Position numbers and translations under genes: made by a program
Part shown: positions 1,938 through 31,243 of the stretch, piece by piece
Numbering within the stretch: the first letter of the stretch is position 1
Layout: each line of letters begins with the position of its first letter
DNA from: Pseudomonadota bacterium
GTDB taxonomy: Bacteria > Pseudomonadota > Alphaproteobacteria > Caulobacterales > Hyphomonadaceae
NCBI GenBank assembly: GCA_038532405.1
Contig: JBCBAO010000001.1
Location: forward strand, 1-46,349
Direction of reading: 5' to 3'
Length of the DNA: 46,349 bases
The notes under the pieces: generated by a model
Databases searched by the model: none
The model's input: only the letters and a program-made list of their open reading frames with translations
What the model was told of the DNA's origin: nothing

Positions 1938-3107
1938 ATGAGCCTAACAGATGTCCAGATACGCCGCTTGAAAATCCCTGCCAAGGGACAGAAAACTTAC
2001 TTTGATAAATCGCTTCCTGGGTTCGGAGTGCGGGTCTCGCAAGGCGGCAGTAAGACCTTTATCGCCCTATGTGGCCCAGCCCGTAAGCGACACTCATTGG
2101 GACGCTATCCGGATATGTCCCTAGCCACCGCTCGTGCCCATGCCAAAAAGGTGCAAGCCGAATACGCCCTAGACAGCCCCATTTCAGCATCTCGCCCGAC
2201 CATGACCTTTGAGGTCGCGCGCGATATGTTTTTGGCTGACAGCCAAAGGCGCAACCGCCCGCGTACCTTTGTCGAATACAGACGCCACCTGCGCACCCAT
2301 TTCCCGTTCAAGGAACTACTGAACGACGTGGACCGGCACCAAATCGTCCGCGCTTTGGACAAAATTAAGGATAAACCGTCCGAGAAAAAGCACGCGTTTG
2401 TCGCTCTGCGCACAATGATGAACTGGTGCCGAAAGCGAGGTTACTTGGATTTCTCACCGGTACCGCCGCTGACATTCAAAGAAACAACAAGAGATCGAAT
2501 TCTGAGCGCCGACGAATTGAGAGCGGTTTGGTGGCGGGCGGAAGAATTCGACTATCCGTTCGGCGCAATTGTCAAACTGTTGATCTTGACCGGCCAACGC
2601 CGAGGCGAAATCACAGCCCTCCGGCGGAGCTGGCTGACAGATGAGCTAATCTGCTTTCCCGCAGACGCCGTCAAAAACGGTCGCAAGCACTTTCTACCAT
2701 TGAGTGACATGACCCGAAACTTAGTATCCGAGCTACCAGAGCGCACCGATTTGCTGTTCCCTGCGAGGGGTAAAGACGATTCACCATTTAACGGTTTCTC
2801 TGCGGCCAAAAAGAAATTCGACCGAGATCTAAACATCGCCCCATACAACCTGCATGATCTGCGACGCACCTTTAGCAGCAATATGGCCAAGCTGGGCACA
2901 CCCATCCATGTTACTGAGAAAATTCTGAACCACGTTTCTGGCACCATCAGCGGTGTGGCCGCGATATACAATCGCTATTCCTACCAAGATGAAATGCGCC
3001 AAGCGCTTGCAGCACATGAAGGCTACCTTCGCGCCATACTTGATCAACAACTTCAGAGTGACCAGCATAGCCTCAGTTTGCGCGAAATTGAGGAGCCCAC
3101 GTTCTAG
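1938..3107 (+). CDS. tyrosine-type site-specific integrase, P4-like with DUF4102-type N-terminal arm-binding domain
   Basis: 389 aa. The N-terminus (LTDVQIRRLKIPAKGQKTYFDKSLPGFGVRVSQGGSKTFI) is typical of DUF4102. Catalytic motifs are LTGQRRGEI (Arg), HDLRRTF (H-x-x-R), ILNHVSG (His) and IYNRYSY (Tyr). It sits directly next to the tRNA fragment. Confidence 0.9.
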   Translation: MSLTDVQIRRLKIPAKGQKTYFDKSLPGFGVRVSQGGSKTFIALCGPARKRHSLGRYPDMSLATARAHAKKVQAEYALDSPISASRPTMTFEVARDMFLADSQRRNRPRTFVEYRRHLRTHFPFKELLNDVDRHQIVRALDKIKDKPSEKKHAFVALRTMMNWCRKRGYLDFSPVPPLTFKETTRDRILSADELRAVWWRAEEFDYPFGAIVKLLILTGQRRGEITALRRSWLTDELICFPADAVKNGRKHFLPLSDMTRNLVSELPERTDLLFPARGKDDSPFNGFSAAKKKFDRDLNIAPYNLHDLRRTFSSNMAKLGTPIHVTEKILNHVSGTISGVAAIYNRYSYQDEMRQALAAHEGYLRAILDQQLQSDQHSLSLREIEEPTF

Positions 3108-3229: not shown

Positions 3230-3520
3230 GCTTTGCGACGGAATGGAAATTGAAGAAGCGAACCAACTGTCCGTGGATTTCGCTCGACAGCCATCACCAT
3301 CTTGAACAAATGTGGGGCCCTTGCGCAGCGTCGCTCGGTCGCGACCAACGTCCTTTTTTTACGTGATGGCAAGCTTTAGCAGGAAACTCCCGATCGCATC
3401 GGGTGCGGCAGAACGCCGGTCGCATCCACCAGCGCGCCGCCCGTCAGTTCGGGCATAGTTGCATATCCGCCTTGATCAATCAGTTCGATCAGAAACGAGC
3501 GATGCGGGTCAAGCTTGCCT
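3230..3520 (-). pseudogene. degenerate IS630-family transposase remnant (N-terminal HTH region), frame-disrupted
   Basis: The minus strand of about 3402-3519 translates to GKLDPHRSFLIELIDQGGYATMPELTGGALVDATGV. About 3340-3366 gives KKRTLVATE in a different frame. Both resemble the N-terminal third of IS630-type transposases as I remember them. There is no intact ORF, start codon or DDE region. Confidence 0.3.
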
Positions 3521-3788
3521 TAACAACATCTTCATGGCTGGAATGCAGGGGTCTAGTTCATGATACATCTAAAACAAAATGGAATACTTGGACTATCGAC
3601 GAAAAAAGACGCTAGCATATGCGGGTTGGTTGGACGTAAGCGCACAATACCAAACGAATTGTTTTCAACACCACAGAAGCGTTGCGCCTCGCAAATTCTT
3701 GAAATTTCAATCATTTATGCTGGCGCGGTACTTGATACCCCGACCGAATAAGCAAAAAGGGCGCTCCAAAATTGAAGCGTCCAAACGA

Positions 3789-4046
3789 CTAGAATATTAA
3801 GGTTTGCGGGCAGACGCTACGAGGAACGTCCGTTGGAACGTGAAAGGGGTCTCGAAACAACCAGTGAACCTTTGTTCCATCTTGGTTGAATTTTCCATTC
3901 ATGCAAGGATATTCCCCAGGCCATGTGTTTCTTATATTCGCCAAAACACGTCCAACAATGAGTTGTCGCATCGGTTGCGGAAGAAACGCAATTTCCAATG
4001 AAACGAGCGTGTTCTTGTTTGTCGGCCTAAATTGATATGGCATCAT
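3789..4046 (-). CDS. hypothetical small protein (85 aa), divergent from the kinase operon
   Basis: The ORF-track entry 3789..4058 has an ATG-ATG at 4046 preceded by a strong Shine-Dalgarno (ttGAGGAGtactATGATG). I recognised no family. It lies in the AT-rich cassette. Confidence 0.45.
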   Translation of the reverse strand: MMPYQFRPTNKNTLVSLEIAFLPQPMRQLIVGRVLANIRNTWPGEYPCMNGKFNQDGTKVHWLFRDPFHVPTDVPRSVCPQTLIF

Positions 4047-4231
4047 AGTACTCCTCAAAAGGCTGCCCCATAAAGGTCAGTATCTATGACATAAAATATA
4101 CCTCTTGACACCAGCCCGCAATCGACAGGCGCAGCATTCCATTGCATAGTATCAGCGGCTGAAAGTGCGATTGTTTTGAAGATCCTGTCAACATGCGTGC
4201 ACAAAAGCTAATTTTGGGAGAGTGCGTTTAG

Positions 4232-7225
4232 TTGCAAACAAACCTTTTAACTCATCTTACGTCATCTAAACAGAACCTGTTGGTGCTCCAAGACGAGGTA
4301 TCCACACATACCGAATTGCAGCTCTCATTTTTGATGACAATCGGATTTGAGAAAATCAACCAAATGGTTGTAAGCACGCTACCGGAGAAGGACGCGAACA
4401 GGCTTTGTGAAATGCAGCCGAACGAGTTCTTCTCGCCTGAAAACGTCGATTTCTTTCACGATGTGATCTTTCCTAAGATTTCTTTTCTAGACGAAATGCT
4501 TGTCGACTTCTCCGGCGAAAGCCCGTTGCTACAAATGCTTCGCCTCAATCATCAGTTTCGTAGTTTCGAAACACTGTTTCTTTGGTCCAGAGTTGCTAGA
4601 TACAAAGCTTCGACGAAAGACAACATCTCATCTTTCCTATACTCACCGACACCTGACTCTTCGCTTACGCTTAGAATGACTTCGAATGCGGACTTGCGCG
4701 GGTATGTATTTGCGGGCCCCGCGTTCGTCTCAGATGATTACTTCCAATGGAATTCGTTGAACGAAAGCAACTTTATTGGAGGATTTCATTCGTTCGCGGC
4801 GAAATTTCTTTCTACCGGCCTGCTTGACCGCATGAAAAGATTTTCCGCTTTAAGATCCGTTATCACGACTTCGGACTCTGATTTTCGTTTTGAGAAAATT
4901 CAAGACCTTTTGTCGAGACTTGCCACAGTGTCCATGCCCGCTGGAAAATTCTCTCGTTCAATACTCAGGGTGCTCTTACGAGCTGTTATAACCGCAGTAG
5001 ATACGAACAAAAATTCGGAAGATTTACTGCGATTTTCATTTCCGTTGCGACAGTCCGAATTTAACAGTGAAATTCAATACCTCAATAAATCTCTCGATTT
5101 GAGGCGAGTAGAAGGAGAGCATGGTTTAGAATGGGAAAGCGCTCTTACATCGTCTGTTGAGGCAACGAACGATATTGCAAGTCGTCCTGATCAAAAGATG
5201 TCAGAGCTTTCCGATAGGGCGCATACCAATGCGACAGACCAACGCCTTGAAAATCTACTCGTCTATCGCAACCTGATCTTCTCAGAAGTCAATTCGTCTG
5301 ACCCCTTTTTGCCAACCACAGATCAGAAGGACAAAGAGGGCAACTTAGGGAAAAGAAAGGTTTTTCAAAAGGATGGTTCGATTGAAACCGTCACTTGTGA
5401 CTGGTTGAGAAAAATTCTGAGATGTGATGTCGTCACGTTTTTCAGGTCAGACCACTCTCACTACAGCTTGGAAGGTACCGCATTCAGCTGCGTTGATGCA
5501 GAGAGTGAAGTTTGGGCTAGAAAGCAAATTGATGCAATCGCTGACCTTTCGAAAAGTTCAGAACAAAGTGGATCATATCTTTACAAGTCTTTTTCTAATT
5601 CGAAACAGCAGCTCTTACTGAGCGGACAAGACTTCACTTCAACCGATGCTGAAGGCGACTCCGATAAAACAGCTTTGGGCAAAAACGTATCAAATGATTT
5701 CTTGAGCGATAGGAAACTTCGAACTCCTAAATGCGCGTTAATTTTACCGGTTCAACACGGTGGCAGGACTTATGGAGTGATTGAATGCGTCAGCTTTTTG
5801 CCTTTCGCCTTCGACAGCTCCGCTCTCGTACTTATTGACGAGTTCACAGACTTATTGGGCCAATTTTTCTTGGTTAAATCAAACGCTAAGCTGGTAAGTG
5901 ACATAAACGAAGAAACAGTCGGAAAAGTATCTGATCAAGGACCACAAAAGTCCTACGATCAAATCGCTCGTATTATTGCCAACTACTTTCTTTGTTTTTC
6001 GGCTTCGATCTGGCGACCGAACAACTACAACGCCAATGTAATTGAATTGAGGGGGCAGCATAACCGGTTTAACAAACAAGACTCGATTGCACCTCATATG
6101 CTTCCAAAGTTTAACCTGTCGTCTATCCCTTCGGTCACACAACAGGCTTTTGAAGCGAAAAAATGCATCACGGGCCAATTGGGCCAAAAACCATTTGATA
6201 CGGAATGGCTGGAAGCAGACTTCAGAAAGGACTGGGTAGAGAGTGGCGCAAAATATGCCGCTGTTTTGCCGATCTTTGTTGATGACCAACCAGTCGCAAG
6301 TATTGCTTTGGCGAGTAAAAATCATGAATTTACAGATGCCTGGGCGCCGCAATTTGAGTTCTGCGCGGATGTTGTGGGAAGCGCATTAAAAAACGTAGCG
6401 GTTTTGGAAAAAGTCGTTTGGGATGGCCTTTCAGATACCAGCCATGAATTGGGGAACATTTCCAACAAACTGAATGTTGCTTCTTCTCGATTAAAAGGCA
6501 CAATTGGGTCGCTCGAACCGCGCCTACGATACAGTGAACCCAGAAGCGGAGATCTCATCCAAAAAGTTCAGCTAAGCCTCGGCGACGTACTTCGCTCGTC
6601 AGAAGAGCTAGCTGTGATAGCAGACGTGTTAGAACCTGAGAGCTTTGTCAAATTCTTTGGAGAGGGCCTGGTTAGATCAAGCCCACTTACATATCGGCTT
6701 TTGTCAAAATTAAAGCTGGAAGAAATCTCCATACGAGAAATCTGGAACGAACAGTTCGAAAACGCGAGCAAGCAAGCGCACAAGAAAGCACTGGAGTTTG
6801 ATGTTCGATGGTTGGCGGATCAAGACGTTTGTTATGTCGACCAAAAAATGACAGCAAGCGTTCTTCGAAACCTTATCGCAAATGCAATCAAATATGCGCC
6901 CAAGAAAGGAAAAATAGATGTTGAGGCCCACACTATACCGGAACGCAAGGTGCTAACCCTGAAGATTGCAAACCTTGGTCCACGACTGTCACGCCAAGAA
7001 CAAAATAGAATTTTCGAACGACGATTTAGAGGATTCGAAGCTGAAAAAAGTACTGTCAAAGGTCTTGGAGAGGGTTTGTTTCAAGCAAAGGCATTTGCGA
7101 AAAGGCAAAAAGCTTCTTTGTCACACATACAAGATACTGTTGAAGGAAATGATAGCTTGGCTAGACATCAATTTACACTCACCTTTCCCTTGATTAAAGA
7201 AGCTGAAAACGTTGGGGAGATGTAA
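4232..7225 (+). CDS. cytoplasmic sensor histidine kinase: about 400-aa unknown N-terminal region, two GAF-like domains, HisKA and HATPase_c
   Basis: 997 aa with a TTG start 9 nt after GGGAGAG. I saw no hydrophobic TM-like stretch. GAF-like ends are ALILPVQHGGRTYGVIECVSF and AAVLPIFVDDQPVASIALAS. Kinase motifs are the H-box SDTSHELGNIS, the N-box LRNLIANAIKYAP, the G1 region IANLGPRLS..IFERRFRG, and G2 GLGEGL. Confidence 0.85.
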   Translation: MQTNLLTHLTSSKQNLLVLQDEVSTHTELQLSFLMTIGFEKINQMVVSTLPEKDANRLCEMQPNEFFSPENVDFFHDVIFPKISFLDEMLVDFSGESPLLQMLRLNHQFRSFETLFLWSRVARYKASTKDNISSFLYSPTPDSSLTLRMTSNADLRGYVFAGPAFVSDDYFQWNSLNESNFIGGFHSFAAKFLSTGLLDRMKRFSALRSVITTSDSDFRFEKIQDLLSRLATVSMPAGKFSRSILRVLLRAVITAVDTNKNSEDLLRFSFPLRQSEFNSEIQYLNKSLDLRRVEGEHGLEWESALTSSVEATNDIASRPDQKMSELSDRAHTNATDQRLENLLVYRNLIFSEVNSSDPFLPTTDQKDKEGNLGKRKVFQKDGSIETVTCDWLRKILRCDVVTFFRSDHSHYSLEGTAFSCVDAESEVWARKQIDAIADLSKSSEQSGSYLYKSFSNSKQQLLLSGQDFTSTDAEGDSDKTALGKNVSNDFLSDRKLRTPKCALILPVQHGGRTYGVIECVSFLPFAFDSSALVLIDEFTDLLGQFFLVKSNAKLVSDINEETVGKVSDQGPQKSYDQIARIIANYFLCFSASIWRPNNYNANVIELRGQHNRFNKQDSIAPHMLPKFNLSSIPSVTQQAFEAKKCITGQLGQKPFDTEWLEADFRKDWVESGAKYAAVLPIFVDDQPVASIALASKNHEFTDAWAPQFEFCADVVGSALKNVAVLEKVVWDGLSDTSHELGNISNKLNVASSRLKGTIGSLEPRLRYSEPRSGDLIQKVQLSLGDVLRSSEELAVIADVLEPESFVKFFGEGLVRSSPLTYRLLSKLKLEEISIREIWNEQFENASKQAHKKALEFDVRWLADQDVCYVDQKMTASVLRNLIANAIKYAPKKGKIDVEAHTIPERKVLTLKIANLGPRLSRQEQNRIFERRFRGFEAEKSTVKGLGEGLFQAKAFAKRQKASLSHIQDTVEGNDSLARHQFTLTFPLIKEAENVGEM

Positions 7226-7228
7226 GCT

Positions 7229-8137
7229 TTGTTCGACGCGTTAGAAGGTCCTGAGGAAGCTGAGAAGGTAATCTTAATTCTAGAAGACGAACCTGCCACC
7301 ATCGAAGTCCATGAGAATGCGCTAGCTGCGGCGGAGATAAAATACGATATTGTTAATACGTCGGATGAGTTTCTAGAAAAGCTGAGGTCTGGGTTCAGCG
7401 AGAATGTTGCCGGAATTTCGCTGGATGTTAAACTGCAATTGCCGATTGGAATTGATGCGCCTCAATTTAACGAACATGCAGGGTGCTGGTTTTTTTCAGA
7501 AGTTCTAAGATCGAATGAAGACGCTCAGGTTGAACTGAGCGAAGACACGCAAAAGTTACTTAAAACACTTCCCGTGGCTTTTTTAACAAACAATAGTAAC
7601 GATCCGAAATTGAAGGCACTTGAGGAACAAAACATCGGATTCGGGTTCTCGAAGTTCACGAAATCCTCGAGCCAAAGCGAGTTGTTTCTTGACTGGGCTC
7701 GCAAAGCTGTCCTGAATTCACGGCTAAAAGCGGACTTCGAAAGTTCGCTTACCAGCGCTTCGGTGTTTTTGTCTTCGCTTGGATTGACAACGGCCCAAGA
7801 AATGAAGGCTCTTGGGGTCAATTTTGTTAACCATGATCTCTTCAAGTATATTTTGACGTTGAGCGACGGTGAGCCTGGATACAGTAGAATTTTGTCTTTT
7901 CGGCCTTATGAGGAAACACTAGATCCTTCAATTTGCATGCAAAGATGGGACCTAATTTCTGACTTCATTGCCCGCGCTATGGCTGTTTTTTCTAATAACA
8001 TAGAAGTTGTTAAGGCAGACTTATCGCAAGAGATCCAAATTTTTGGAGGCAGGTCCGCGCTTGAGATACTCGCGAGCGGAAGCGACCGAGACTTGGCGGA
8101 ACTAAACCAGTATTATCATGAGCGTTGGAACAAGTAG
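7229..8137 (+). CDS. response-regulator receiver domain fused to an MbcA/ParS-type (Xre-like HTH plus DUF2384) antitoxin domain
   Basis: 302 aa with a TTG start 3 nt after the kinase stop and GGGGAGA upstream. Receiver-like motifs are VILILEDE (acidic pocket), GISLDVKL (candidate phospho-Asp) and VAFLTNN. The C-terminal about 125 aa (LGLTTAQEMKALGVN ... WDLISDFIARAMAVF ... GGRSALEILASGSDRDLAELNQYY) aligns by eye with MbcA/ParS antitoxins. Confidence 0.7.
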   Translation: MFDALEGPEEAEKVILILEDEPATIEVHENALAAAEIKYDIVNTSDEFLEKLRSGFSENVAGISLDVKLQLPIGIDAPQFNEHAGCWFFSEVLRSNEDAQVELSEDTQKLLKTLPVAFLTNNSNDPKLKALEEQNIGFGFSKFTKSSSQSELFLDWARKAVLNSRLKADFESSLTSASVFLSSLGLTTAQEMKALGVNFVNHDLFKYILTLSDGEPGYSRILSFRPYEETLDPSICMQRWDLISDFIARAMAVFSNNIEVVKADLSQEIQIFGGRSALEILASGSDRDLAELNQYYHERWNK

Positions 8138-8817
8138 TGAAGGTATTTGACTTTTTCGACGAGGCAGATTCAAACTGCCGGTGTCCCGTAATTTGGCGCT
8201 GCGTTGCTCCTGATGTTGAGCCATCGCCACTTTCAGAAGCCGTAACTTCTTCCGCTGACGAAAGACTGGCGATTGCGCGAACTTTGAACCGTTTAAATTC
8301 AACCAAAGGTTCCACGCGGCGGCGCATCAAATGGGAAAAGAGGGCCACGGTAACAAGGTATTCTGATGGAACAATTCCGGTAGTGTATTTCGCAAGAGAT
8401 CCACAAACTGCGATTACTGAGTGTTTTCATTGGGCAAGTAGGAGAATAAAGCCTCCCGAAGGTTCATACGAAATAACTTTGAAAGTTTTTTCCGTCCGCT
8501 TTGACGGGCACCTAAAAGACTTAGAGGCGCTTACGCCACCTTGCATGGACCTTGTTCATGGCACGAACTACGATTGTTGCAACAAGGTGGCAGAACTTGC
8601 CTATGAAGACGAACGCCTCGACGGACTAAATGTCCGTTCCGCGAGACGATTGGACGGTGTGAATGTACCTGTTTTCCGGGAGACATCTGTGGGAGAGGTG
8701 ATTGATGATGATATTTGTATCTTGCACGTGGAAGACAACATGTTGACCTGCTTTCTTCAACGACAGCAATTTGAGGTGGTTAGCGAGGATGTGTATTCTT
8801 TGATTGCAAAGTCGTAA
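8137..8817 (+). CDS. RES-domain toxin (MbcT/ParT-like NAD+-degrading family)
   Basis: GTG at 8137 overlaps the upstream TAG by 1 nt; an alternative TTG lies at 8125. The R-E-S pattern is TRYSDGTIPVVYFARDPQTAITEC (Arg, Glu) and GLNVRSARRLDGVNVPVF (Ser). It directly follows a DUF2384-type antitoxin, the canonical RES-Xre gene order. Confidence 0.7.
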   Translation: MKVFDFFDEADSNCRCPVIWRCVAPDVEPSPLSEAVTSSADERLAIARTLNRLNSTKGSTRRRIKWEKRATVTRYSDGTIPVVYFARDPQTAITECFHWASRRIKPPEGSYEITLKVFSVRFDGHLKDLEALTPPCMDLVHGTNYDCCNKVAELAYEDERLDGLNVRSARRLDGVNVPVFRETSVGEVIDDDICILHVEDNMLTCFLQRQQFEVVSEDVYSLIAKS

Positions 8818-9057
8818 GGTTTGAATATCGCCTAGAAGCGAGCTTTTCTTGATGCCAGCTTGCAAGGATCCAGCGGGATTCAATACAACGCAGTAGCTCC
8901 AAATTCGCAAATCTCTCCAGAGTTTTTTGTGCTCAATGAGAGCTCTATGATCTGGCCGCGATTAGCCAAAAAAGTTCGACAACTGTATCTTCACCACAGA
9001 AGTGACCAATTGACTAGGAGCCACCCTATCGATTGAGCCGATATTTCGTACAGGGCA

Positions 9058-9141
9058 TCACTTTTGCTTCTCTGGCCCACGCCGATCCAAAAGTTCCAGA
9101 AGTGGTCCGATATGGTTCACAACACACTTTTCTAGATCACG
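9058..9141 (-). pseudogene. remnant of the C-terminus of a paralogous large serine recombinase gene
   Basis: The minus strand translates DLEKCVVNHIGPLLELLDRRGPEKQK*. The intact recombinase has LVNHVGPLLELMRKYK near its C-terminus. At nucleotide level 9091-9120 matches 9690-9719 (aagttcNagaagtggtccgaNNtggttcac, 27 of 30). An in-frame stop lies immediately upstream at 9142-9144. Confidence 0.6.
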
Positions 9142-9604
9142 CTAGAAGCCACCATATTGGCTCAGTAAATGTGCTGAATACTAGACACAGACAATAAATA
9201 TTGTTTATATACAAATAGATAGTCTTTACTCTAATGGGCTCTTCATGAGCATACTCGTTAATTGCCAAGTGGAGGAAAAGACATGCTCGCTGGACATTCA
9301 GGTGCCACGGCTGGATATGACAGTGGTTCATTCACATAAGACATTTTCGACAGCAGCGGTAACTGGGTAGGGTTTATTTCTCCCGATGAGATTATAGATC
9401 TTGGCGATGAACGCACCCCAGCTGATATCATTGGAGCATCGTGTCCAGAACGGAGTGGTGTTCTCAATTCAGCAAGGTGGATTAAGCTTTTTCCTCAAGG
9501 AAAGATCGTTACGCTTCAATCGCTATGCTAAACAAAGCCCCAAAGACACCCCCCCAAAGGTGAGGTCTTTGCGGGCTATTTTTGTTTATGGAGACAGCCA
9601 GGTG

Positions 9605-11140
9605 CTAGGGCTGCTGGTTTTTCAGGTTCCGCTTCCATTGCGGAATTTCCACATCCTTTGATTTCTCCTCAGAAGATAGTTTGTATTTCCTCATAAGTTC
9701 GAGAAGTGGTCCGACGTGGTTCACCAAAGGGGTCAGTTCGGAAAAATCACGACTGATGAGCCAAGAAAACGGCTCAATACATGGCTCATCTCCCAAAACA
9801 CTGAGGTTCGAGAAGCAGTTTGCCAGCAAGAACCGTTTTTCTTCCGGAACCAGCGTTTCGTGAAGCTCTGTCAGGCTCGTTATCAGTTCGAGAAATTTCT
9901 CCAGTTGAGCCTCCGAAAGGTCTGATTTTACCAGTTCCACACGTTCTTCTTTGAGCTGCGCAACTTCCAGCTTCATCGATTGCTTGCGCGCATCATGCGC
10001 ATGTCGATCTATTGCACCGTCCAATAGCAGGTCGGTCAATCTCTCGAGGCGTTCTTCGGCTTTGGCAATCCGTAGATCAATCGAAGTCACCATTGCGCTT
10101 CGTTCCTCTGTATTGAGCCATTTCAACCAGTCGGCACGCAACTTTTCGGCATCTGTCTCTGATAAAGACAGGCGCTCATATGCCGTCGAAATCGCTCCTT
10201 CGAGTCGATCTTCCCGAATGATGTTTTTGGGGCAGTCCTTTGTTTGACACCGGTAATAGACGAAGGTTTTCTGACGTTCAGGGATCATGGCGCGTGAACA
10301 CAAGGCGCATTGAAACAGACCTCGATACAAATGATTGTGCCGCGTAACTTTCTTCCCAGCCTTTCCTGCTTTGATATCTTGCACACGCTGGAAAAGCCGC
10401 ACCGATATGAGTGGTTGATGGACCCCATCGTAGACTTCACCGGTCCGCTCTATCTGGATTTGACCCGTATAGAATGGGTTGCGAAGGATGGTCTCAATGC
10501 CATGTTTCGTGACGGGTTTTTCGATGTGATTTCTGAGGCCTCGGCGCTCCATCTCCAGCTGCAATGAGTTGATTGAAAATTGCCCGGACGAATAGAGATC
10601 AAAAGCTGCTTTGATCAAAGGTGCTTTTGCGGGGCAAGGTGTCTTGGGCTTACCACGGCCATTATCGAGGTATCCGATTGGTGCCCTGAACGGGTAAAGT
10701 CCTTGCTTCAAACGTCCGCGCAAACCTTTGATGCACTCTTCGCGAAGATTGTGGATGTAGTCTTCTGCAATCACTGCCTGGAGGTTAGCAGACAAGCGTC
10801 CACCGCGCGTATCCAGATCCAGGCCATCTGCAACAAAATATGGTTTGACGCCGTATGATGGCAGTTCCGATATGTGCGTCCAGTCCCGCAAGTTGCGAGC
10901 TGAGCGGTCGATCTTGTGCATGATCAGACCTTCAGCACACCCTTTCTTTAGCTGCTGAAGCATCAGATTAAACACGCGTCGTCCTGACTTGGCCGCCGTT
11001 TCCTTTTCTTCGAACCATTGAGTGATTGTCAGGTCGTTTTGACTCGCAAAAAGCGTTATCGCGTCCTTTTGCGCTTCGAGCGAAACACCCTCACCTTGCT
11101 TCTGGGTGGACACTCGAATGTATCCAAAACAGGGTTTCAT
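9605..11140 (-). CDS. large serine recombinase (resolvase catalytic domain, recombinase domain, zinc ribbon, coiled coil)
   Basis: 511 aa. The N-terminus CFGYIRVSTQKQGEGVSLEAQ carries the catalytic Ser context, followed by LIMHKIDRSARN. The Cys cluster is CALCSRAM...YYRCQTKDC. The C-terminal region is a long charged helix. Confidence 0.92.
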   Translation of the reverse strand: MKPCFGYIRVSTQKQGEGVSLEAQKDAITLFASQNDLTITQWFEEKETAAKSGRRVFNLMLQQLKKGCAEGLIMHKIDRSARNLRDWTHISELPSYGVKPYFVADGLDLDTRGGRLSANLQAVIAEDYIHNLREECIKGLRGRLKQGLYPFRAPIGYLDNGRGKPKTPCPAKAPLIKAAFDLYSSGQFSINSLQLEMERRGLRNHIEKPVTKHGIETILRNPFYTGQIQIERTGEVYDGVHQPLISVRLFQRVQDIKAGKAGKKVTRHNHLYRGLFQCALCSRAMIPERQKTFVYYRCQTKDCPKNIIREDRLEGAISTAYERLSLSETDAEKLRADWLKWLNTEERSAMVTSIDLRIAKAEERLERLTDLLLDGAIDRHAHDARKQSMKLEVAQLKEERVELVKSDLSEAQLEKFLELITSLTELHETLVPEEKRFLLANCFSNLSVLGDEPCIEPFSWLISRDFSELTPLVNHVGPLLELMRKYKLSSEEKSKDVEIPQWKRNLKNQQP

Positions 11141-11346: not shown

Positions 11347-12549
11347 TCACCGATATGGTGGATACATGGTGGCCGAGAATGGTCTGAACCGGACGCCTTT
11401 GTGCATCAGCCAAACGGTGGATCGATGGTTCGCCTGGTTCTGAAAATCAAGCGCTGAGAATGGCGGTAAGAAGCGCTCAAAGAAGGGCGCATCATTCGCA
11501 CCGAGACGATAGACCATCATGGTGCCCACGTTGCCCAGGATGGCATCACGCACCTCTGTGTCGGTTTGCGAGAGATGTTGATGCGCAAGGATAAGACCCA
11601 AACCATACTTGCGCGCCTCAGACAGCAATCCAGCAAAAGTCTTGGTCGTCAGGTTGTGGAACTCGTCGACGTAGAGGAAGAACGGACGTCGCGCCAGTGC
11701 GGGCATGCCATGTCTTGTGAAGGCGGCCTGCATGATCGTGGATGTGATCAGGCCACCCATGATGTTGGAGATGTCCGTGCCGAGCCGCCCCTTTGCTAGA
11801 TTGATGATGAGCGCCTCGCCACCGTCCATGATGGATCGAAACCGAAGCGTTTGGCGTGGTTCACACAGCGCTGTCCTCACCGCAGGATGCGCCAGAAATG
11901 CGCCGATCTTGTTTGCCACAGGGCTCACGCCATCGGCGCTGGTTTGATAATTCATGGCGGGGAATTCATGTTTCCAGAAGAACCGTGCTTGTGGATCAGT
12001 GAGGCTTTCCGTGATCTGGCGACGAAAACCTTTGTACACGAAGAGCTTAAGGAGATCTCTTAGATCAGCCTGAGACTGCTCCAAAAGCGCCAGGATCGCA
12101 TAGCGCAACAGGTGCTCCATCCGCGCGCCCCACGCATCTGGCCATTGCTTTTTGAGCGCCTCAATGAAGGCAGAGGCGACGAGCGGGCGGTACTGCTCAC
12201 TCACGCGCCGCAACGGATTGTATCCCAACGGACAAGCAGGATCGGCCACGTTCCAGTAGAGATGATCCGCCCGGAGTTGGCGATGCAGGCTTTCGGCAAG
12301 ATCGCCATGCGGGTCGACCAAACAGAATCCCGTGCCCTGGTTGAAATCTTGCCACGCCAGGTTCTGCAGCAAAGTCGACTTACCCGTCCCGGTTTGGCCG
12401 ATGACGTACATATGCATCAGCCGATCCGGCTCGGTAATTGCAAATGGTTTTGGATCTTCATAGCGCTGATAGGCCATTCCTAAGGTGGTTGATTTAGGCA
12501 TCAACGCATTTTCAGCGCTGAGGTCTCCTAGCGCTAGCAGGCTGCACAT
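11347..12549 (-). CDS. VirD4/TraD-like coupling-protein-type P-loop ATPase (FtsK/HerA superfamily), short form without TM region
   Basis: 400 aa. Motifs are Walker A GQTGTGKS, Walker B FFLYVDEFHN, and ARKYGLGLILAHQHLSQ, which is shared with the 691-aa paralog at 17204. The start codon is ambiguous, with several in-frame Met. Confidence 0.75.
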   Translation of the reverse strand: MCSLLALGDLSAENALMPKSTTLGMAYQRYEDPKPFAITEPDRLMHMYVIGQTGTGKSTLLQNLAWQDFNQGTGFCLVDPHGDLAESLHRQLRADHLYWNVADPACPLGYNPLRRVSEQYRPLVASAFIEALKKQWPDAWGARMEHLLRYAILALLEQSQADLRDLLKLFVYKGFRRQITESLTDPQARFFWKHEFPAMNYQTSADGVSPVANKIGAFLAHPAVRTALCEPRQTLRFRSIMDGGEALIINLAKGRLGTDISNIMGGLITSTIMQAAFTRHGMPALARRPFFLYVDEFHNLTTKTFAGLLSEARKYGLGLILAHQHLSQTDTEVRDAILGNVGTMMVYRLGANDAPFFERFLPPFSALDFQNQANHRSTVWLMHKGVRFRPFSATMYPPYR

Positions 12550-15207: not shown

Positions 15208-15810
15208 ATGCAAAATACCGCACCCGCATCTGAGATGCGCTTGTACAGCCATGACGGCGAGCGACTGTATATCAATTCTGAGGAACGCCAGAGGTTTTTA
15301 CACGCTGCCCTTCGAGCTTCACCTGATATACGCCGCTTGTGCCTGACCTTGCTCTACACAGGGTGTCGCGTGTCAGAAGCGCTGGAACTAAAGGGACGAT
15401 CGCTGCAGCAGGAGGCGCAGTTGCTGACCTTTCGAACTTTGAAGCGCAGGCGGCACAATGTGTTCAGAGAAGTGCCCATTCCCACCACGCTGGTGAATGA
15501 GTTGTCTTTAGCGGCCAGCACACCTGATGACCTTCTTTGGCCAAACGTGCATCGCAGTACGGCATATCGCGCTGTGAAGTCCGTTATGTCTGCCGCTCAA
15601 ATCAGTGGTGCAAAGGCCTGTCCAAAGGGTTTGCGCCATGGATTCGGCCACTATGCCGTCATCGTCTCTCTGGTGCCGCTCAACATCGTTCAAAAGTGGA
15701 TGGGACATGCGTCTATGAAAACCACGACCATCTACGCCAATGCCGTTGGTCCCGAAGAGTTGGCCCTTGCGCGCCGTATGTGGAATAAGCCACCGCTGCC
15801 GGATCTCTAA
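15208..15810 (+). CDS. short tyrosine recombinase/integrase (catalytic domain only)
   Basis: 200 aa. Motifs are LLYTGCRVSEAL (Arg), GLRHGFGHY (H-x-x-R-like), WMGHASMKTT (His) and IYANAVG (Tyr). Confidence 0.85.
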   Translation: MQNTAPASEMRLYSHDGERLYINSEERQRFLHAALRASPDIRRLCLTLLYTGCRVSEALELKGRSLQQEAQLLTFRTLKRRRHNVFREVPIPTTLVNELSLAASTPDDLLWPNVHRSTAYRAVKSVMSAAQISGAKACPKGLRHGFGHYAVIVSLVPLNIVQKWMGHASMKTTTIYANAVGPEELALARRMWNKPPLPDL

Positions 15811-16844: not shown

Positions 16845-17204
16845 ATGCGTGTCTCCATTTCCCATGACACCGTCCGCAAGGGCTTCATTCTCAAAACCAC
16901 CTATCATGAGGTGATCCTTCAGGTGGCTTTTACTCATGAAGAGAAACAGATCATCACACAAAGAGGCTTACTGAAAACCAAGCTGATGGATCGTCGTCCG
17001 GCCACAGCCAAGGTTGATGATCGAGATGAAAAGTTTGAGCTCCGCGTCGAAGATCTGATGGACGGCGCGATTGATCGATTTCTCTGCGCTACACCGAGCC
17101 AATCCAAAATCTACGAAGAAACGCTACTTGATGCGCTCCAGCAGATGAAACTCTGGCTCGATGATAACGCCGATACGGCGGACCGCACCGTGGTTGAGTT
17201 CTGA
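16845..17204 (+). CDS. hypothetical protein
   Basis: 119 aa. Its stop TGA overlaps the ATG of the downstream ATPase gene (TGATG at 17202-17206), which suggests an operon. Confidence 0.5.
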   Translation: MRVSISHDTVRKGFILKTTYHEVILQVAFTHEEKQIITQRGLLKTKLMDRRPATAKVDDRDEKFELRVEDLMDGAIDRFLCATPSQSKIYEETLLDALQQMKLWLDDNADTADRTVVEF

Positions 17205-19279
17205 TGTCTCGCAGTTTTGCCCAAGATTACGTGAGCTTCGTCCTCTTTGGGGTGATCCTGGCTATGATCCTCATCGTGGCAGTATTGGTGTCCTGGATCG
17301 CCTTGATCGGCATTCCGGCCTATGTCGGGTATCGCCTCTGGAAGGAAAATCCAAAGCGACTTGAGCGGCTCGCCCGTGAAGAAACCCAACTGCTGTTTGA
17401 TCACGCGCAGGCTGGAACTGTCCAACTCTCCGAAGAAGAGATCATGGACGGGCTAACACGGCATTGGTCGCCAGACATGCCGACCGTTCTTGGCGTGCAA
17501 CTCATGGAGATTGGCAGAGCGCTTTTTGAGGCCGAAGGGCTGGCAAAAGAGATCCCACCCCTGCCCGCGCTATGCAACACAATCGAAGGCGCGCGGTATC
17601 GCGACATGCTCGCCAAATCTGGGCAGGCCCGCACTGACAGAGTGATAGTCACGCAAGCGCTCGACATCATCAGTCAAGCTCTGGCCCCCATCGCGAACGC
17701 CGTGCCGCCGCTCGACGGCGACGTCATGGTTGAGGTCACGCAGTTCACCCAGCCGCTTGGTCGGACTGTGCAAAACATCATCGCTCCCTTCTTTGCCGAA
17801 AACGACTACCACCTCTTCAAAGAGCTTCGTCAGCGGATCGATAGCAACCTCACGGCCACCCATCGCACCAACCCGATTTTCCCAGTGGACTACAAAGGTG
17901 ATGATGTGGTCGACACCTACCTGCGCGGCACGTATCTCAAGGAGCTCTTCAAATTAAAGACCCCCTTCACCATCCCGGAAGACAGCCGGTTCGAACACAC
18001 CCATATCGTTGCTGGATCGGGCCACGGAAAAAGCCAAACTCTGCAATACTTCATCGCCAAGGATCTCGAAGGTGTCGCGCGCGGGGACCGCTCGGTTGTG
18101 GTGATCGACAGCCAGGGTGATCTGATCAACACCATTCTCAATGCCAAGGTTCTGCCGCCAGAACAGATTGTCCTGATCGACCCAGAGGATATCGGCTACC
18201 CGGTCAGCCTCAACCTATTCTCGGTCGGTCAGGATCGCTTAGAGAGTTACGACCCTTTAGAACGAGAGCGCCTCACAAATTCCATCATCGAGCTCTATGA
18301 CTTCGTCCTTGGGTCGCTGCTCTCGGCCGGAATGACAGCCAAGCAAAGCGTGGTCTTCCGGTATGTCACGCGGCTCATGTTTCATATCCCGGATGCCACC
18401 ATCCACACCCTGCGCGAATTGATGGAGCCGGGTGGCACGGCAAAATACCAAGAGCACATCGAAAAGCTCGAGGGCACACCGCGCCGCTTCTTTGAAACCG
18501 AGTTCGACAGCAAGGAGTTCACCAACACCAAAACGCAAGTGCTGCGCCGCCTCTATGGGGTCCTGGAGAACCAAACCTTCGAGCGGATGTTCTCGCACCC
18601 GGAGAGCAAGTTCGACATGTTCACGGAACTTGGTGCTGGCAAGCTCATCCTGATCAACACCGCCAAAAGCCTTCTCAAAGAACAGGGCACTGAGATCTTC
18701 GGCCGCTTCTTCATTGCTTTGATCGCACAAGCTGCTCAAGAACGGGCCACCCTGCCCGCCCGCGACCGTCTCCCTGCCATGGTATACATTGATGAAGCAC
18801 AAGACTATTTCGATCAGAACATCAGCGTGATCCTGAGCCAAGCCCGCAAATACAAAGTCGGTATGGTCATGGCCCACCAGTATCTCGGTCAGCTCACCGG
18901 AGGCCTACAAGAGGCCTTTGAGGCGAACACCTCAATCAAACTTGCCGGCGGCGTGTCTGCCCGTGATGCCCGCACGCTGTCTGGCCAGATGTCCGCGGAC
19001 CCACAGATGATCCAGCAGCAGCCTAAAGGCACCTTCGCGACTTACGTGCGTGGGTTGACGGAGCGCGCCGTGCCGCTGAGCTTTCCATTCTTCGTTTTGG
19101 AAAAGATGCCGCGCGCCACAAAAGACGAGATCGATGCCATCCGGCAACAGTGCCGTGCGGCCTATGCGGAGCCATGGTCACCAACGAGTAGCGATGAGCA
19201 ACCACCCGAGGATGAGCCGCCGGAAAACCCCGAAGAAAACGACCCAGATGATCCGCTAAAACCTTCGCCGGAGCTCTAG
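17204..19279 (+). CDS. VirD4/TraD-like coupling-protein-type ATPase with N-terminal TM segments
   Basis: 691 aa. The N-terminus is hydrophobic (FVLFGVILAMILIVAVLVSWIALIGIPAYV). Motifs are Walker A GSGHGKSQ, Walker B AMVYIDEAQD, and ARKYKVGMVMAHQYLGQ. The C-terminal tail is acidic and Pro-rich. Confidence 0.8.
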   Translation: MSRSFAQDYVSFVLFGVILAMILIVAVLVSWIALIGIPAYVGYRLWKENPKRLERLAREETQLLFDHAQAGTVQLSEEEIMDGLTRHWSPDMPTVLGVQLMEIGRALFEAEGLAKEIPPLPALCNTIEGARYRDMLAKSGQARTDRVIVTQALDIISQALAPIANAVPPLDGDVMVEVTQFTQPLGRTVQNIIAPFFAENDYHLFKELRQRIDSNLTATHRTNPIFPVDYKGDDVVDTYLRGTYLKELFKLKTPFTIPEDSRFEHTHIVAGSGHGKSQTLQYFIAKDLEGVARGDRSVVVIDSQGDLINTILNAKVLPPEQIVLIDPEDIGYPVSLNLFSVGQDRLESYDPLERERLTNSIIELYDFVLGSLLSAGMTAKQSVVFRYVTRLMFHIPDATIHTLRELMEPGGTAKYQEHIEKLEGTPRRFFETEFDSKEFTNTKTQVLRRLYGVLENQTFERMFSHPESKFDMFTELGAGKLILINTAKSLLKEQGTEIFGRFFIALIAQAAQERATLPARDRLPAMVYIDEAQDYFDQNISVILSQARKYKVGMVMAHQYLGQLTGGLQEAFEANTSIKLAGGVSARDARTLSGQMSADPQMIQQQPKGTFATYVRGLTERAVPLSFPFFVLEKMPRATKDEIDAIRQQCRAAYAEPWSPTSSDEQPPEDEPPENPEENDPDDPLKPSPEL

Positions 19280-19298: not shown

Positions 19299-20177
19299 AT
19301 GAAACAGCCACATACAGACAGTCTCGGTCGCGCAACGTTCCACTATATCGATCAGCGCGGAGATGTGCGCCCGACACCGCGCGCCCTTCGCTGGTTCAAA
19401 CATATCGAACGGCATGGCCCGCAATCGTCAGAGTTTCTCTATGAGCTCACACGCGATACGCATCGGTGCAAAGACACCGCCCTGCGTGACTTGCAGAAAC
19501 TGCGAGCGGGAGGTTTTCTTCAACTACCAAAACAGCAACGCGCCACCGAACGGGCCGAGTTCAATCCGTATATCTATGACCTAACTCGTCAAGCGCATGA
19601 CCACCTCAAAGGCCTTGGGTTGGCCGAAATCACGGTACGGCTGACTGGACATTGGTGGCATGCCTACACAGTGTCGGCGTTCACAGGATCGCTGGACATC
19701 GTGGCCCAAAGGAACGGGAATACATTCATTCCAGCACACGAAATCTTAGAACGCAACGGTGCAGAGCTTGCGATCCCGCTTCATGGTGGCAAAGTCATTC
19801 CGGATCAGCTTTTTGCCATTCGGTACCCAGAGGGGTTTCGCGCGTTCATGCTTGAGGTGGATCGGGGAACGGAACCGATCCAGTCAGGTGCGGCTAGGAA
19901 GAGTTTGGCCAAATCCGTTGAACAGTATTCGCAGCTTTTGAATTCGGATGCGCATCGTCGTCACTATGATCTCAGGGCAAACACGCTTATTTTATGGGTG
20001 TTCAACAATCCGGCGAGAATGGTTGAGTTTCAGAACCTGTTGCAGGCGAGGTGCCCGGCTCAGGCACCCTCGTTCTTGTGCAAAGTTGTGCCATTCCGTC
20101 TTTCTTGGGAAAATCTGCAAAGTTTGCATCAAGCTGCGTGGGTTTCTGCGAACGATGAGGCAGTGGACGGCGTTTAG
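19299..20177 (+). CDS. replication-relaxation (Replic_Relax-like) family protein, putative mobilisation protein
   Basis: 292 aa. It has a winged-helix-like N-terminus (FLYELTRDTHRCKDTALRDLQKLRAGGFL) and VIPDQLFAI...FMLEVDRGTEPI, which resembles the family motif as I remember it. It follows a coupling-protein-like gene. Confidence 0.55.
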   Translation: MKQPHTDSLGRATFHYIDQRGDVRPTPRALRWFKHIERHGPQSSEFLYELTRDTHRCKDTALRDLQKLRAGGFLQLPKQQRATERAEFNPYIYDLTRQAHDHLKGLGLAEITVRLTGHWWHAYTVSAFTGSLDIVAQRNGNTFIPAHEILERNGAELAIPLHGGKVIPDQLFAIRYPEGFRAFMLEVDRGTEPIQSGAARKSLAKSVEQYSQLLNSDAHRRHYDLRANTLILWVFNNPARMVEFQNLLQARCPAQAPSFLCKVVPFRLSWENLQSLHQAAWVSANDEAVDGV

Positions 20178-20182
20178 ATTGG

Positions 20183-21774
20183 GCCGATTCTGTTGAAGAA
20201 CTCGGGGCAAATGACGACAAGATCGTCGCTGGAGCGTCTGCGCGGGTTGCTTGCCCCGGAAGCTGATCCGGTCGACGCCCAAGTCGGCTGATTTGGCCGG
20301 TCAGATCATGCCATGGTCTCCGTTTGGACGGTCTTGGGCCTGAGCTTGGCGAGCTTTCTTAGGTTCTGTGCGATTGCTGCGAGAAGGAGCTCGTCCTTGG
20401 CTCCATTCGGTCCGCGCAGTCGCAATCTGGTCAGGTTCAGGATGCGCTTCAGATGCGCGAAGAGCATCTCGACTTTCTTCCTTTTGTCACGGCTGACTTT
20501 GTAGGCTTCCGTTTTGCGGCTGGACCGTGCGAAGTCGCGTGCGTCCTCATGCTCTTCCCGACTGATCGATCTGCAGATCGCATTTGGGCAGCACCTTTCT
20601 TTGGAGGGGCATCCCTGGCAGTCGGACTTCAGGGCGCGGTATTTACGAGTGCCGGTAATATTCTTGCCGCGATTGGGATCGGAGTAGTTTCGTCGGAACT
20701 GTTTGAGCGCGAAGCCTTCTGGGCAGATGTACTGATCGTTGGCCTCGTCATAATCAAACTCAAACCGTGTCCATGCTCCGTCCTTGCGGTTCGAGTGATC
20801 GATCACCGGAATGAAGGGGATGATCCCGCGCTTCTTGACCAGCCAACCTAGATTATCGCTGGAGCCATATGCTGTGTCAGCAGCGAGCCAATCCGGCCGG
20901 ATACCGAAGCGCTTTTCGGTGCGATCCAGCATTGTTTGAGACGCCCCCACCTCGGCCTGTCGGATTGCCCGCGTGGCCTCCACGTCCATAATCACTGAGC
21001 TTTTCGTATCGATCAGGTAATTTGTGGCATAGGCAAAGTACGGGCGGCTTTCCTCGGCTCGAGTCCACTGGGCCGCCGGATCACACTTGGCAATGAACTT
21101 GGGCTGGACAGGAGAGGCCGCGCCGAAGGCCGCATCATTCAGCGTTTCCAGATACTCTCTTGCCGCACGGTTTCCAGCTGCACGAGCGACGTCTTCATTC
21201 CATTCCTTTGCCGCTATGGAACGGGCCTTGTTGGCATCGGCTGGTATCAGGCTGGCGTCAACCGCGAAGCCCTCGCCGGATACGAGGTCTTCCTTAAGGC
21301 AGCGCTCGACAGTCGTCTCGAAGATATGGCGCAGCAAGTCGCTATCACGGAACTTGCCATGGCGGCACCTCGAGAACGATGAATGGTCCGGTACCTTGTC
21401 CTCGAGCCCAAGTCGGCAGAACCAGCGGTATGCCAAGTTGAGATGCACCTCCTGGCAGAGGCGGCGCTCAGACCGAATGCCCATCACATAACCAATCACC
21501 AGCATCCGGACGATGAGTTCGGGATCAATCGAAGGGCGACCTGTGTGGCTGTAGAACGGTTTCAGCTTCTCCCGCATGCCGCCTATGTCGAGGAAACGAT
21601 CGATCGCTCTCAGGACGTGATTGGGAGGGACATGTGCGTCCAGATCGAACTCGTAAAACAGCTGCGCCTCGACCTTTTGAATGCCCATCATCGCTCCATC
21701 CTCCCAATCTCGATAAATTGAGTGAATCAAACGACTTGCCGCACTGCAACACAGAGTTTTTCAACAGCATGGGC
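20183..21774. mobile_element. IS1182-family insertion sequence, apparently intact
   Basis: The imperfect terminal inverted repeats match at 18 of 21 positions. They are gccgattctgttgaagaactc (20183-20203) and the reverse complement of 21754-21774 (gcccatgctgttgaaaaactc). They enclose a single transposase ORF, and the length of about 1.59 kb is in the family range. Confidence 0.6.
20306..21691 (-). CDS. IS1182-family (IS5-like DDE) transposase
   Basis: MMGIQKVEAQLFYEFDLDAHVPPNHVLRAIDRFLD...GRPSIDPELIVRMLVIGYVMGIRSERRL is the typical N-terminal DUF772 region. A C-terminal DDE domain and a Cys cluster follow. I place the start at the MMG (21691) rather than the track start 21730. Confidence 0.9.
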   Translation of the reverse strand: MMGIQKVEAQLFYEFDLDAHVPPNHVLRAIDRFLDIGGMREKLKPFYSHTGRPSIDPELIVRMLVIGYVMGIRSERRLCQEVHLNLAYRWFCRLGLEDKVPDHSSFSRCRHGKFRDSDLLRHIFETTVERCLKEDLVSGEGFAVDASLIPADANKARSIAAKEWNEDVARAAGNRAAREYLETLNDAAFGAASPVQPKFIAKCDPAAQWTRAEESRPYFAYATNYLIDTKSSVIMDVEATRAIRQAEVGASQTMLDRTEKRFGIRPDWLAADTAYGSSDNLGWLVKKRGIIPFIPVIDHSNRKDGAWTRFEFDYDEANDQYICPEGFALKQFRRNYSDPNRGKNITGTRKYRALKSDCQGCPSKERCCPNAICRSISREEHEDARDFARSSRKTEAYKVSRDKRKKVEMLFAHLKRILNLTRLRLRGPNGAKDELLLAAIAQNLRKLAKLRPKTVQTETMA

Positions 21775-25766: not shown

Positions 25767-25865
25767 AGCATACTCCTTTATTGCTATAGTGACGTTGTGT
25801 TGCTAGTTAGCAATTACAGGGATATCCGATTCTTGAGCAATTGCAAGAGTGAAATGGGAGAGCAC

Positions 25866-26799: not shown

Positions 26800-27077
26800 G
26801 CAGTTCACTCGTCAGCACTGGCAGCGAATGGCAGCAATGCGGGCTGCAGCTGCAGCATCAGTAAAGGGCGATGAGAGTCCGGTTGGGGCCGCGACCAACG
26901 GTGAGATCTATTAGCTCGCTGAGCTGACGCTGCGGTGCCGCAGGTCCGCTTCGAGCCCATGGCGGACATTCTCCGACAGCTTTAAAAACCCAGAGTTCCC
27001 TGGATCATTCAACCAGCGAACTAGACACGGGTAAATCGCTGCTTCAACATACACTTGCGCCACAAGAAGGTGATCAA

Positions 27078-31217: not shown

Positions 31218-31243
31218 TTGCTCGCCCTCCAGTTCTGGCTCGC

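Follow-up and report, generated by a model that had tools for sequence, protein, structure and literature searches.

The window analyzed here is the whole 46,349-nucleotide (nt) stretch of contig JBCBAO010000001.1, from a member of the Hyphomonadaceae. Near its left end lie three intact, tightly packed genes on the forward strand (coordinates in Table 1), encoding a sensor histidine kinase, a protein in which a receiver domain appears to be fused to an antitoxin, and a RES-domain protein. We interpret them as a mobile three-gene module in which a RES-Xre toxin-antitoxin pair would be under direct protein-level control of a dedicated His-Asp phosphotransfer pair, a reading whose chances we consider to be evenly balanced. 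The open reading frames (ORFs) fell exactly where an earlier note, made by a model from the letters alone, had placed them, with a 3-nt gap between the kinase gene and the middle gene and a 1-nt overlap at the second junction, where the last letter of the TAG that ends the middle gene (8135-8137) is also the first of the in-frame GTG at 8137. An alternative RES start, TTG at 8125, would extend this overlap to 13 nt; GTG was preferred because homologues begin at the equivalent position. Both the kinase gene and the middle gene start with TTG, preceded at a distance of 9 nt by the Shine-Dalgarno sequences GGGAGAG (kinase gene, TTG at 4232) and GGGGAG (middle gene). The AT-rich character ascribed to the cassette was also found, with a guanine-plus-cytosine (GC) fraction of 0.447 in the module versus 0.533 in the rest of the window. 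The low-GC segment that bears the module is bordered by an IS630-like fragment at ∼3400–3520 and by a gene for a serine recombinase.

The first gene product is supported by sequence comparison as a soluble, GAF-containing histidine kinase of 997 amino acids (aa). Its ATP-binding domain, well above the Pfam cut-off (Table 1), carries an N-box (RNxxxNAxKY) and a G-box (GxGEGL), in which N880, N884, G944, G946 and G948 are invariant in homologues. A profile search of the PDB with this domain returned histidine kinases only (WalK/YycG at 1e-11, VicK at 1.1e-10 and 20 other kinases), and the NCBIfam matches over the same region were likewise histidine kinase models only. The putative phospho-accepting residue, His738, stands in the motif DGLSDT-S-H738-E-L-G-N, which has the form of a HisKA H-box; every kinase covering the site has H738, E739 and N742, within an invariant S-H-E-(L/I)-x-N, and the codon was verified. 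The H, N and G boxes that had been read from the sequence are all invariant in homologues.

Upstream of the catalytic core, one of the two GAF-like domains previously proposed was confirmed by Pfam (E 3.6e-7), and the other is weakly supported, with E values of 0.026 in the window and 0.01 in a homologous locus (L001), both below the cut-off, and 0.0085 for GAF_3. An internal duplication was not detectable when the two were compared by hhalign. The expected unrecognized N-terminus of roughly 400 aa proved to be residues 1–387, a region that is conserved in the family and had no Pfam match in three homologues, no relative in the PDB and no tblastn match in plasmids. This orphan region is a candidate sensor. 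No convincing transmembrane segment was found in the kinase, as had been claimed; the top 19-aa Kyte-Doolittle mean was 1.7, from residue 517, within the GAF match at 388–544. A membrane-sensor reading was therefore dropped. PADLOC, in addition, assigns the ATPase domain (residues 865–968; window 6824–7135) to a candidate-defense model, PDC-M43B (E 3.1e-8), and a search for publications on PDC-M43 found none.

The N-terminal half of the middle protein looks like a receiver that is catalytically competent and has an insert at ∼70–100, and not like a pseudo-receiver. An AlphaFold2 (AF2) model built on a 7-sequence alignment (predicted local distance difference test [pLDDT] 76.7, predicted template modeling score 0.70; single-sequence pLDDT 39) has the (beta/alpha)5 order, with strands at 14–18, 38–42, 60–65, 116–120 and 141–144 and an alpha5 helix of 37 residues. 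In this model the acidic pair E19/D20, the putative phospho-acceptor Asp66 (codon 7424–7426), T120 and K145 are placed at the C-terminal ends of beta1, beta3, beta4 and beta5, respectively, and the motifs on which the receiver had originally been recognized (LILEDE, ISLDVKL and AFLTNN) fall where beta1, beta3 and beta4 end. When the full-length model was submitted to Foldseek against PDB and BFVD, receiver matches filled both lists, and the top matches were mainly response regulators or receiver domains (FixJ first, 3.9e-4; probability 0.98–1.00). A five-member family profile searched against the PDB gave 11 matches at E≤10, the six best of which were receiver domains, and in the best (5tqj, E 0.0015) D66 was aligned on the phospho-Asp. 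D66, T120 and K145 are invariant in 7/7 sequences. S64-L65-D66 and F118-L119-T120 are invariant too, and in the acidic pair the family has E/D at the first position and D/N at the second. A phmmer search of the middle protein against the PDB returned nothing, and Pfam and NCBIfam scans of the middle protein and of isolated C-terminal halves yielded no receiver or antitoxin model.

Alignment evidence supports the C-terminal half of the fusion as a complete but highly divergent Xre/MbcA/ParS-type antitoxin, as the earlier note had proposed. As a reference, 12 canonical Xre/MbcA/ParS antitoxins were taken from plasmids, 10 of which adjoin an annotated RES gene. The last ∼125 residues of the fusion aligned to this set by hhalign at 95.5 % (E 1.3e-8) over 104–113 co-linear columns, from the HTH-like (helix-turn-helix) helix pair through the C-terminal FGGxSAxExxxSG...L..L..F...RWGR segment, and all controls (one template reversed, 20 with their columns shuffled, the RES profile and the receiver half of the fusion) gave P≥0.15. 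It is this match, together with the clean controls, that leads us to read these residues as a complete antitoxin. The module thus delimited comprises an HTH-like part and a C-terminal toxin-binding part that ends in a conserved R-W-(G/N/D)-(R/K) tail, and pLDDT is ∼90 over residues 240–300. The HTH-like part looks degenerate, with a recognition-helix stretch that is poorly conserved across the family, Gly- and acid-rich, and modeled with a pLDDT of 66–71.

The third gene is supported as encoding a full-length RES protein, whose R...E...S pattern had been noted previously. It matched Pfam RES at E 3.2e-13 (50.4 bits; cut-off 23.2), and hhalign against four annotated RES NAD+ phosphorylases gave 97.6 % (local) and 98.2 % (global). 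R74, E95 and S168 align on the canonical R, E and S (codons verified), and W20-R21 aligns on the canonical upstream (W/Y)-R motif. Within the family, R74 and E95 are invariant in all five RES members; S168 is invariant in the four long enough to include it (the sequence from L004 is cut at residue 125). The RES family profile produced one spurious match only in the PDB.

When 1.84 billion cluster representatives were searched exhaustively with HMMER, only four other clusters emerged, with end-to-end matches to the middle protein at 29–33 % identity, and a profile search added two proteins, bringing its relatives to six in all. The family sample therefore consists of 7 sequences, that of the window and six from metagenome or read-archive assemblies, one of which (P0007) comes from a short contig and is without the N-terminal 54 residues. 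A kinase gene lies directly upstream of the fusion in 5/5 loci with enough upstream sequence (the window, L001, L002, L003 and L005), and a RES gene (226–231 aa) lies directly downstream, overlapping the fusion gene, in 5/5 loci with enough downstream sequence (the window and L001–L004). The kinases of the homologous loci are GAF/HATPase proteins of 986–993 aa, with those of 986 and 993 aa in L001 and L002 occupying the same position as the kinase of the window. The gaps between kinase and fusion genes measure 3, 38, 22, 23 and −11 nt in five loci, and the overlaps between fusion and RES genes 1, 1, 4, 4 and 16 nt; the latter point to translational coupling of antitoxin and toxin. The order of divergence is alike for the three proteins (the window, then L001, then L002/L003), so the triad is inherited as a unit. 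Co-occurrence in other genomes, which the earlier note had made a test of its proposal, was thus found in every informative homologous contig at ∼30 % identity, and since all ORFs are intact at that distance, purifying selection on the triad is indicated. Chance adjacency of the three genes was dropped in view of the conserved synteny, as was a pseudogene reading because every ORF is full-length relative to its homologues.

The module is rare and appears to travel on mobile DNA. Its GC content is below that of the flanks in three loci, and in L001 it is situated between a relaxase and a methyltransferase/Z1-helicase cluster. At the sensitivity of the scans made, kinase and RES patterns had no relatives among 185,579 species genomes or in IMG/VR, and turned up only a generic kinase in a metagenome collection. 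No match to the middle protein was obtained, again at the sensitivity of the scan, by tblastn against 72,556 plasmids, and in a word-indexed protein search the middle protein found only itself and the RES protein nothing. Because the pattern scans found no relatives, the claim of rarity rests mainly on the exhaustive HMMER search. In L002 (4861–5301, reverse strand) and L003 (3265–3705, reverse strand) a conserved 146-aa ORF converges on the RES gene, 3–4 nt from its stop; it has no Pfam match and was not seen in the window or L001.

What the analysis shows is which domains the three proteins have, that their catalytic and phospho-acceptor residues are intact, and that the genes are tightly coupled and inherited together on mobile DNA. 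In the mechanism that we infer from this arrangement, which takes in phosphotransfer, toxicity, neutralization, gating, trigger and biological role, the soluble kinase would use its N-terminal orphan region of 380 aa, its GAF domain(s) or both to read an intracellular cue, autophosphorylate on His738 and thereby set the phosphorylation state of receiver Asp66. It may also be able to dephosphorylate Asp66, as suggested by the H-E-x-x-N motif, which next to a phospho-His marks HisKA enzymes that act as both kinase and phosphatase. The state of the receiver would be passed through the long alpha5 helix to the fused antitoxin, whose C-terminal tail, by analogy with MbcA, would plug the active-site cleft of the co-translated RES protein. 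In that system, the C-terminus of MbcA is a steric block to the active site of MbcT, and neutralization is lost when 10 residues are deleted (PMC6436930). A change in phosphorylation would then alter antitoxin geometry or oligomeric state and free RES, and free RES would consume NAD+ (or ADP-ribosylate a target), leading to growth arrest or abortive infection. As to polarity, we lean modestly toward an unphosphorylated fusion, as newly made, that neutralizes and a phosphorylated one that releases, because a toxin co-translated with its antitoxin needs instant neutralization, including just after horizontal transfer.

Several results weigh against this interpretation. Of the Pfam models that the earlier note expected, RES, HATPase_c and GAF were found, and two failed: Response_reg (PF00072) reached only 12.3 bits against a cut-off of 30.2 (E 0.2), and in 1/5 members only, and neither PF09722 (Xre_MbcA_ParS_C) nor PF20432 (Xre-like-HTH) matched any of six family members at E≤10, in a scan in which four canonical antitoxins scored 1.7e-12 to 5.4e-3. 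The AF2 model rests on 7 sequences and has low confidence in the insert at 70–100, and the second acidic receiver residue is Asn in two homologues. In the kinase, Pfam HisKA was not detected, the spacing from His738 to the N-box is ∼40 residues above that of typical kinases, and the dimerization and histidine phosphotransfer (DHp) region is unaligned to solved kinases, the PDB alignments stopping short of it; as HisKA went undetected and the His-to-N-box distance is unusual, His738 is regarded as the probable, not proven, phospho-accepting His. The middle protein and the RES protein had no PADLOC match, the fusion family is known from 7 loci only, none traced to an isolate genome, and for the polarity of the switch we offer no more than a guess.

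Control might instead be exerted at the level of transcription only, with the fusion an ordinary response regulator whose HTH-like part binds the operon promoter, cassette expression changing on phosphorylation, the antitoxin part bound to RES constitutively, and release brought about by antitoxin turnover. Canonical Xre-RES antitoxins bind DNA and autoregulate, the hhalign match takes in the HTH part besides the toxin-binding part, and the top Foldseek matches, such as FixJ and StyR, are full-length receiver-HTH regulators. However, the recognition-helix stretch is of the degenerate kind described above, Pfam detected no Xre-like HTH, and no palindromes or inverted repeats of an operator-like kind were found 5′ of the kinase gene in three loci; we consider purely transcriptional control unlikely. 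Promoter-like sites in the region were not more numerous than in shuffles, and terminator scans were also at background. Opposite polarity was weighed as well: constant kinase activity would keep the antitoxin competent, and loss of ATP or a phosphatase-mode signal would free RES. The invariant H-E-x-x-N motif at His738 would suit such an arrangement, and receiver phosphorylation typically favors dimerization, the form in which canonical antitoxins act. Under this polarity, however, fresh unphosphorylated antitoxin would not neutralize the co-translated toxin, a hazard on transfer to a new host, and the sequence does not discriminate between the polarities; this too we judge improbable.

A signaling role without toxicity, in which RES would be a regulated NAD+-dependent enzyme with a physiological function, for example a ParT-like ADP-ribosyltransferase acting on a specific target, finds some encouragement in the fact that RES proteins include ParT-type ADP-ribosyltransferases and in the elaborate sensory kinase, which is typical of physiological signaling. 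It accords poorly with a complete, translationally coupled antitoxin bearing a conserved C-terminal plug, with a rare, patchy distribution on low-GC mobile elements, and with full-length similarity to the RES NAD+ phosphorylases of ordinary toxin-antitoxin pairs, and we give it little credence. Least credible of all is that the N-terminal half is a pseudo-receiver or a cRec-type cyclic-phosphate-processing domain tied to NAD/ADP-ribose chemistry and the kinase an unrelated neighbor. The cRec domains are divergent receivers that are associated with NAD+/ADP-ribose enzymes (PMC7824862), Pfam Response_reg is below threshold here, and one weak BFVD match was to a cRec protein (E 0.53); yet cRec domains by definition never occur with histidine kinases (PMC7824862), and here a co-diverging kinase is adjacent in 5/5 informative loci, the classical receiver Asp, Thr and Lys are invariant, and the best structural and sequence matches are classical response regulators.

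By homology, the effector pair belongs to the RES-Xre kind of toxin-antitoxin system, represented by MbcTA of M. tuberculosis, ParST, Xre-RES of P. putida and NatRT. The likeness extends to a RES protein with aligned R-E-S residues, an antitoxin homologous over the whole canonical Xre/MbcA/ParS length and encoded upstream of, and overlapping, the toxin gene, and a conserved C-terminal tail that corresponds to the MbcA active-site plug. Unlike the stand-alone canonical antitoxins of ∼110–170 aa, however, that of the cassette forms the C-terminal half of a 302-aa receiver fusion, is too divergent for PF09722 and PF20432, and has an HTH-like part that looks degenerate; and whereas RES-Xre systems are self-contained two-gene modules, the cassette has a 997-aa kinase as an obligatory third gene.

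Literature searches found no paper describing a module of kinase, receiver-antitoxin and RES. The earlier note's statement that it was aware of no described toxin-antitoxin or defense system with such wiring has to be narrowed in light of Detocs, already a two-component, cell-killing system in which the effector is fused to a receiver. In Detocs (DtcA kinase, DtcB buffer receiver, DtcC receiver-effector), a His-Asp pair gates a cell-killing effector in phage defense (10.1101/2023.01.24.525353). Both are three-gene mobile cassettes whose soluble sensor kinase and receiver gate, or in our case would gate, a metabolite-depleting, cell-arresting output, ATP being depleted by Detocs and probably NAD+ by the cassette. 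In Detocs the receiver is fused to the effector, whereas in the cassette it carries the inhibitor (antitoxin) and the effector is separate; Detocs has a stand-alone buffer receiver, whereas the cassette has no second receiver gene; and the kinase sensors are unrelated (TPR in Detocs versus orphan region plus GAF here). The DtcA, DtcB and DtcC profiles were unmatched by the cassette, whose sole PADLOC match was that of PDC-M43B to the ATPase domain.

Phosphorylation of antitoxins is known for VapB by Ser/Thr kinases in M. tuberculosis and for PfiA of the Pf4 prophage. There, too, phosphorylating the antitoxin is reported to change toxin neutralization or stoichiometry, and the kinases are unlinked cellular Ser/Thr enzymes acting on ordinary antitoxins, in contrast to the cassette-encoded, co-inherited His-Asp pair with its built-in receiver. 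Two-component systems that regulate defense genes through transcription, for example Ambrosia or kinase/receiver elements beside restriction-modification systems, are similar in having kinase and receiver genes within a defense-type cluster; their receiver bears a winged HTH and transcriptional control has been proposed, whereas that of the cassette appears to bear a toxin-binding antitoxin. A “RES domain” in PMC12189002 was dropped as a precedent, being a misnomer for a receiver domain.

What triggers type II toxin-antitoxin systems is a long-standing and contested question. If phosphotransfer control of the pair is correct, the trigger in this case would be a defined, mutable phospho-switch, not antitoxin proteolysis, and a receiver built into the antitoxin would convert the output of a dedicated cytoplasmic kinase directly into the freeing of a RES enzyme that destroys NAD+. 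It is possible, with a likelihood that we place somewhat short of even, that this is the first type II toxin-antitoxin or abortive-infection module in which toxin release is gated post-translationally by His-Asp phosphotransfer. The cassette would encode both a putative trigger (the sensor kinase) and its point of action (Asp66 of the antitoxin-fused receiver), which makes the proposal testable with few point mutants. It would extend the Detocs principle of two-component signaling as immunity to phospho-control of an inhibitor instead of an effector, a logic without precedent in Detocs, and would tie two-component immunity to a strategy that recurs in immune systems, the depletion of NAD+. The kinase's orphan N-terminal domain, moreover, is a candidate for a new type of sensor, whose intracellular cue might be phage-derived.

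Table 1. Features of the cassette and of the surrounding island (positions in the window).
Feature	Position	Strand	Evidence or remark
Cytoplasmic sensor histidine kinase, 997 aa	4232–7225	+	ORF; Pfam HATPase_c and GAF; full-length homologues
Kinase N-terminal region, residues 1–387	4232–5392	+	conserved in family; invariant FSGESP (93–98) and DRAHTNxxDQRLENLLV (328–344)
GAF domain 1, residues 388–544	5393–5863	+	Pfam GAF E 3.6e-7, 31.2 bits (cut-off 22.4); GAF_2 31.4 bits (cut-off 28.6)
Probable GAF domain 2, residues about 575–719	5954–6388	+	co-linear full-length GAF alignments, below Pfam cut-off
H-box DGLSDTSHELGNISNKL with putative phospho-His738 (codon 6443–6445), H-E-x-x-N motif	6422–6472	+	invariance in homologues
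Catalytic ATP-binding domain HATPase_c, residues 872–986	6845–7189	+	Pfam E 5.7e-11, 43.3 bits (cut-off 26.4)
Receiver-antitoxin fusion, 302 aa	7229–8137	+	ORF, TTG start, end-to-end relatives
Predicted receiver domain, residues 13–183, including long alpha5 linker helix	7265–7777	+	AF2 fold, Foldseek, PDB profile, invariant residues
Xre/MbcA/ParS-type antitoxin module, residues 177–302	7757–8134	+	hhalign versus canonical antitoxins
RES-domain toxin candidate, 226 aa from GTG 8137 (alternative TTG 8125)	8137–8817	+	Pfam RES; hhalign
Promoter-like site 5′ of kinase gene	4122–4150	+	weak, consensus only: TCGACA-17-CATAGT, 9/12 matches
Low-GC cargo segment bearing module	3600–9600 (approx.)		GC 0.40–0.48 in 300-nt windows versus 0.50–0.62 on both sides
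Tyrosine integrase beside core CoA-transferase gene	1938–3107		
Large serine recombinase	9605–11140		
Short (400-aa) TrwB/TraD-like coupling protein	11347–12549		
Second integrase-family gene	15208–15810		
HerA/DUF87-like ATPase	17204–19279		PADLOC mad8 1.5e-12
Replic_Relax protein	19299–20177		

The surroundings of the cassette look like an integrative, conjugative-type island (Table 1). No tRNA gene or clear attachment repeats were found in the window, and a search for attachment-site repeats around the cassette itself gave none that was convincing. A 33-nt direct repeat (88 %) has one copy at 9088–9120, in the spacer that follows the RES gene, and a second at 9692–9724, within the serine recombinase gene at its 3′ end, and may be a recombination scar at the right edge of the cassette. 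The window has the look of a Rhodobacterales chromosome: the CoA-transferase flank is 72.5 % identical to Limimaricola, and the IS copies resemble those of Sulfitobacter and Roseovarius. The IS630-family fragment (3400–3520) at the left edge of the low-GC cassette is 82 % identical to a Sulfitobacter plasmid, and an intact IS1182-family transposase gene (20306–21730) is 85.6 % identical to a Roseovarius plasmid copy. Just 5′ of the integrase-family gene at 15208, a 23-nt inverted repeat (14994–15016/15128–15150) is 96 % complementary, with its arms 111 nt apart.

Other cargo of the island includes, at 25797–29204 on the forward strand, two genes, one for an HTH protein (CapH-like, E 1.7e-4) and the other for a protein resembling metallopeptidases (CapP-like, 2.7e-10; also RmrA-like), directly 5′ of the gene for a 708-aa alpha/beta-hydrolase (PADLOC DUF626_VIII, 8.1e-8), a layout that resembles a CapH/CapP-regulated defense effector. 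Two adjacent nuclease-type genes on the reverse strand (29502–32989) encode a 590-aa PLD-like protein (PLDc_2, 2.3e-21; DrmC-like, 2.1e-10) and a 581-aa fusion of Endonuclease I and EEP domains, and may be further defense or conflict cargo. At 22697–24963 on the forward strand, a gene for a 187-aa AAA_18 kinase-like protein is followed by an overlapping gene for a 583-aa AAA_18/adenylosuccinate-synthetase-like fusion (E 1.5e-48), an unusual nucleotide-metabolism pair for a mobile island. A giant ORF of 3790 aa on the reverse strand (33874–45246) contains RTX calcium-binding repeats, HCBP_related domains and DUF4214, with 7–8 tandem repeats of 459 nt (153 aa) between 35222 and 38900.

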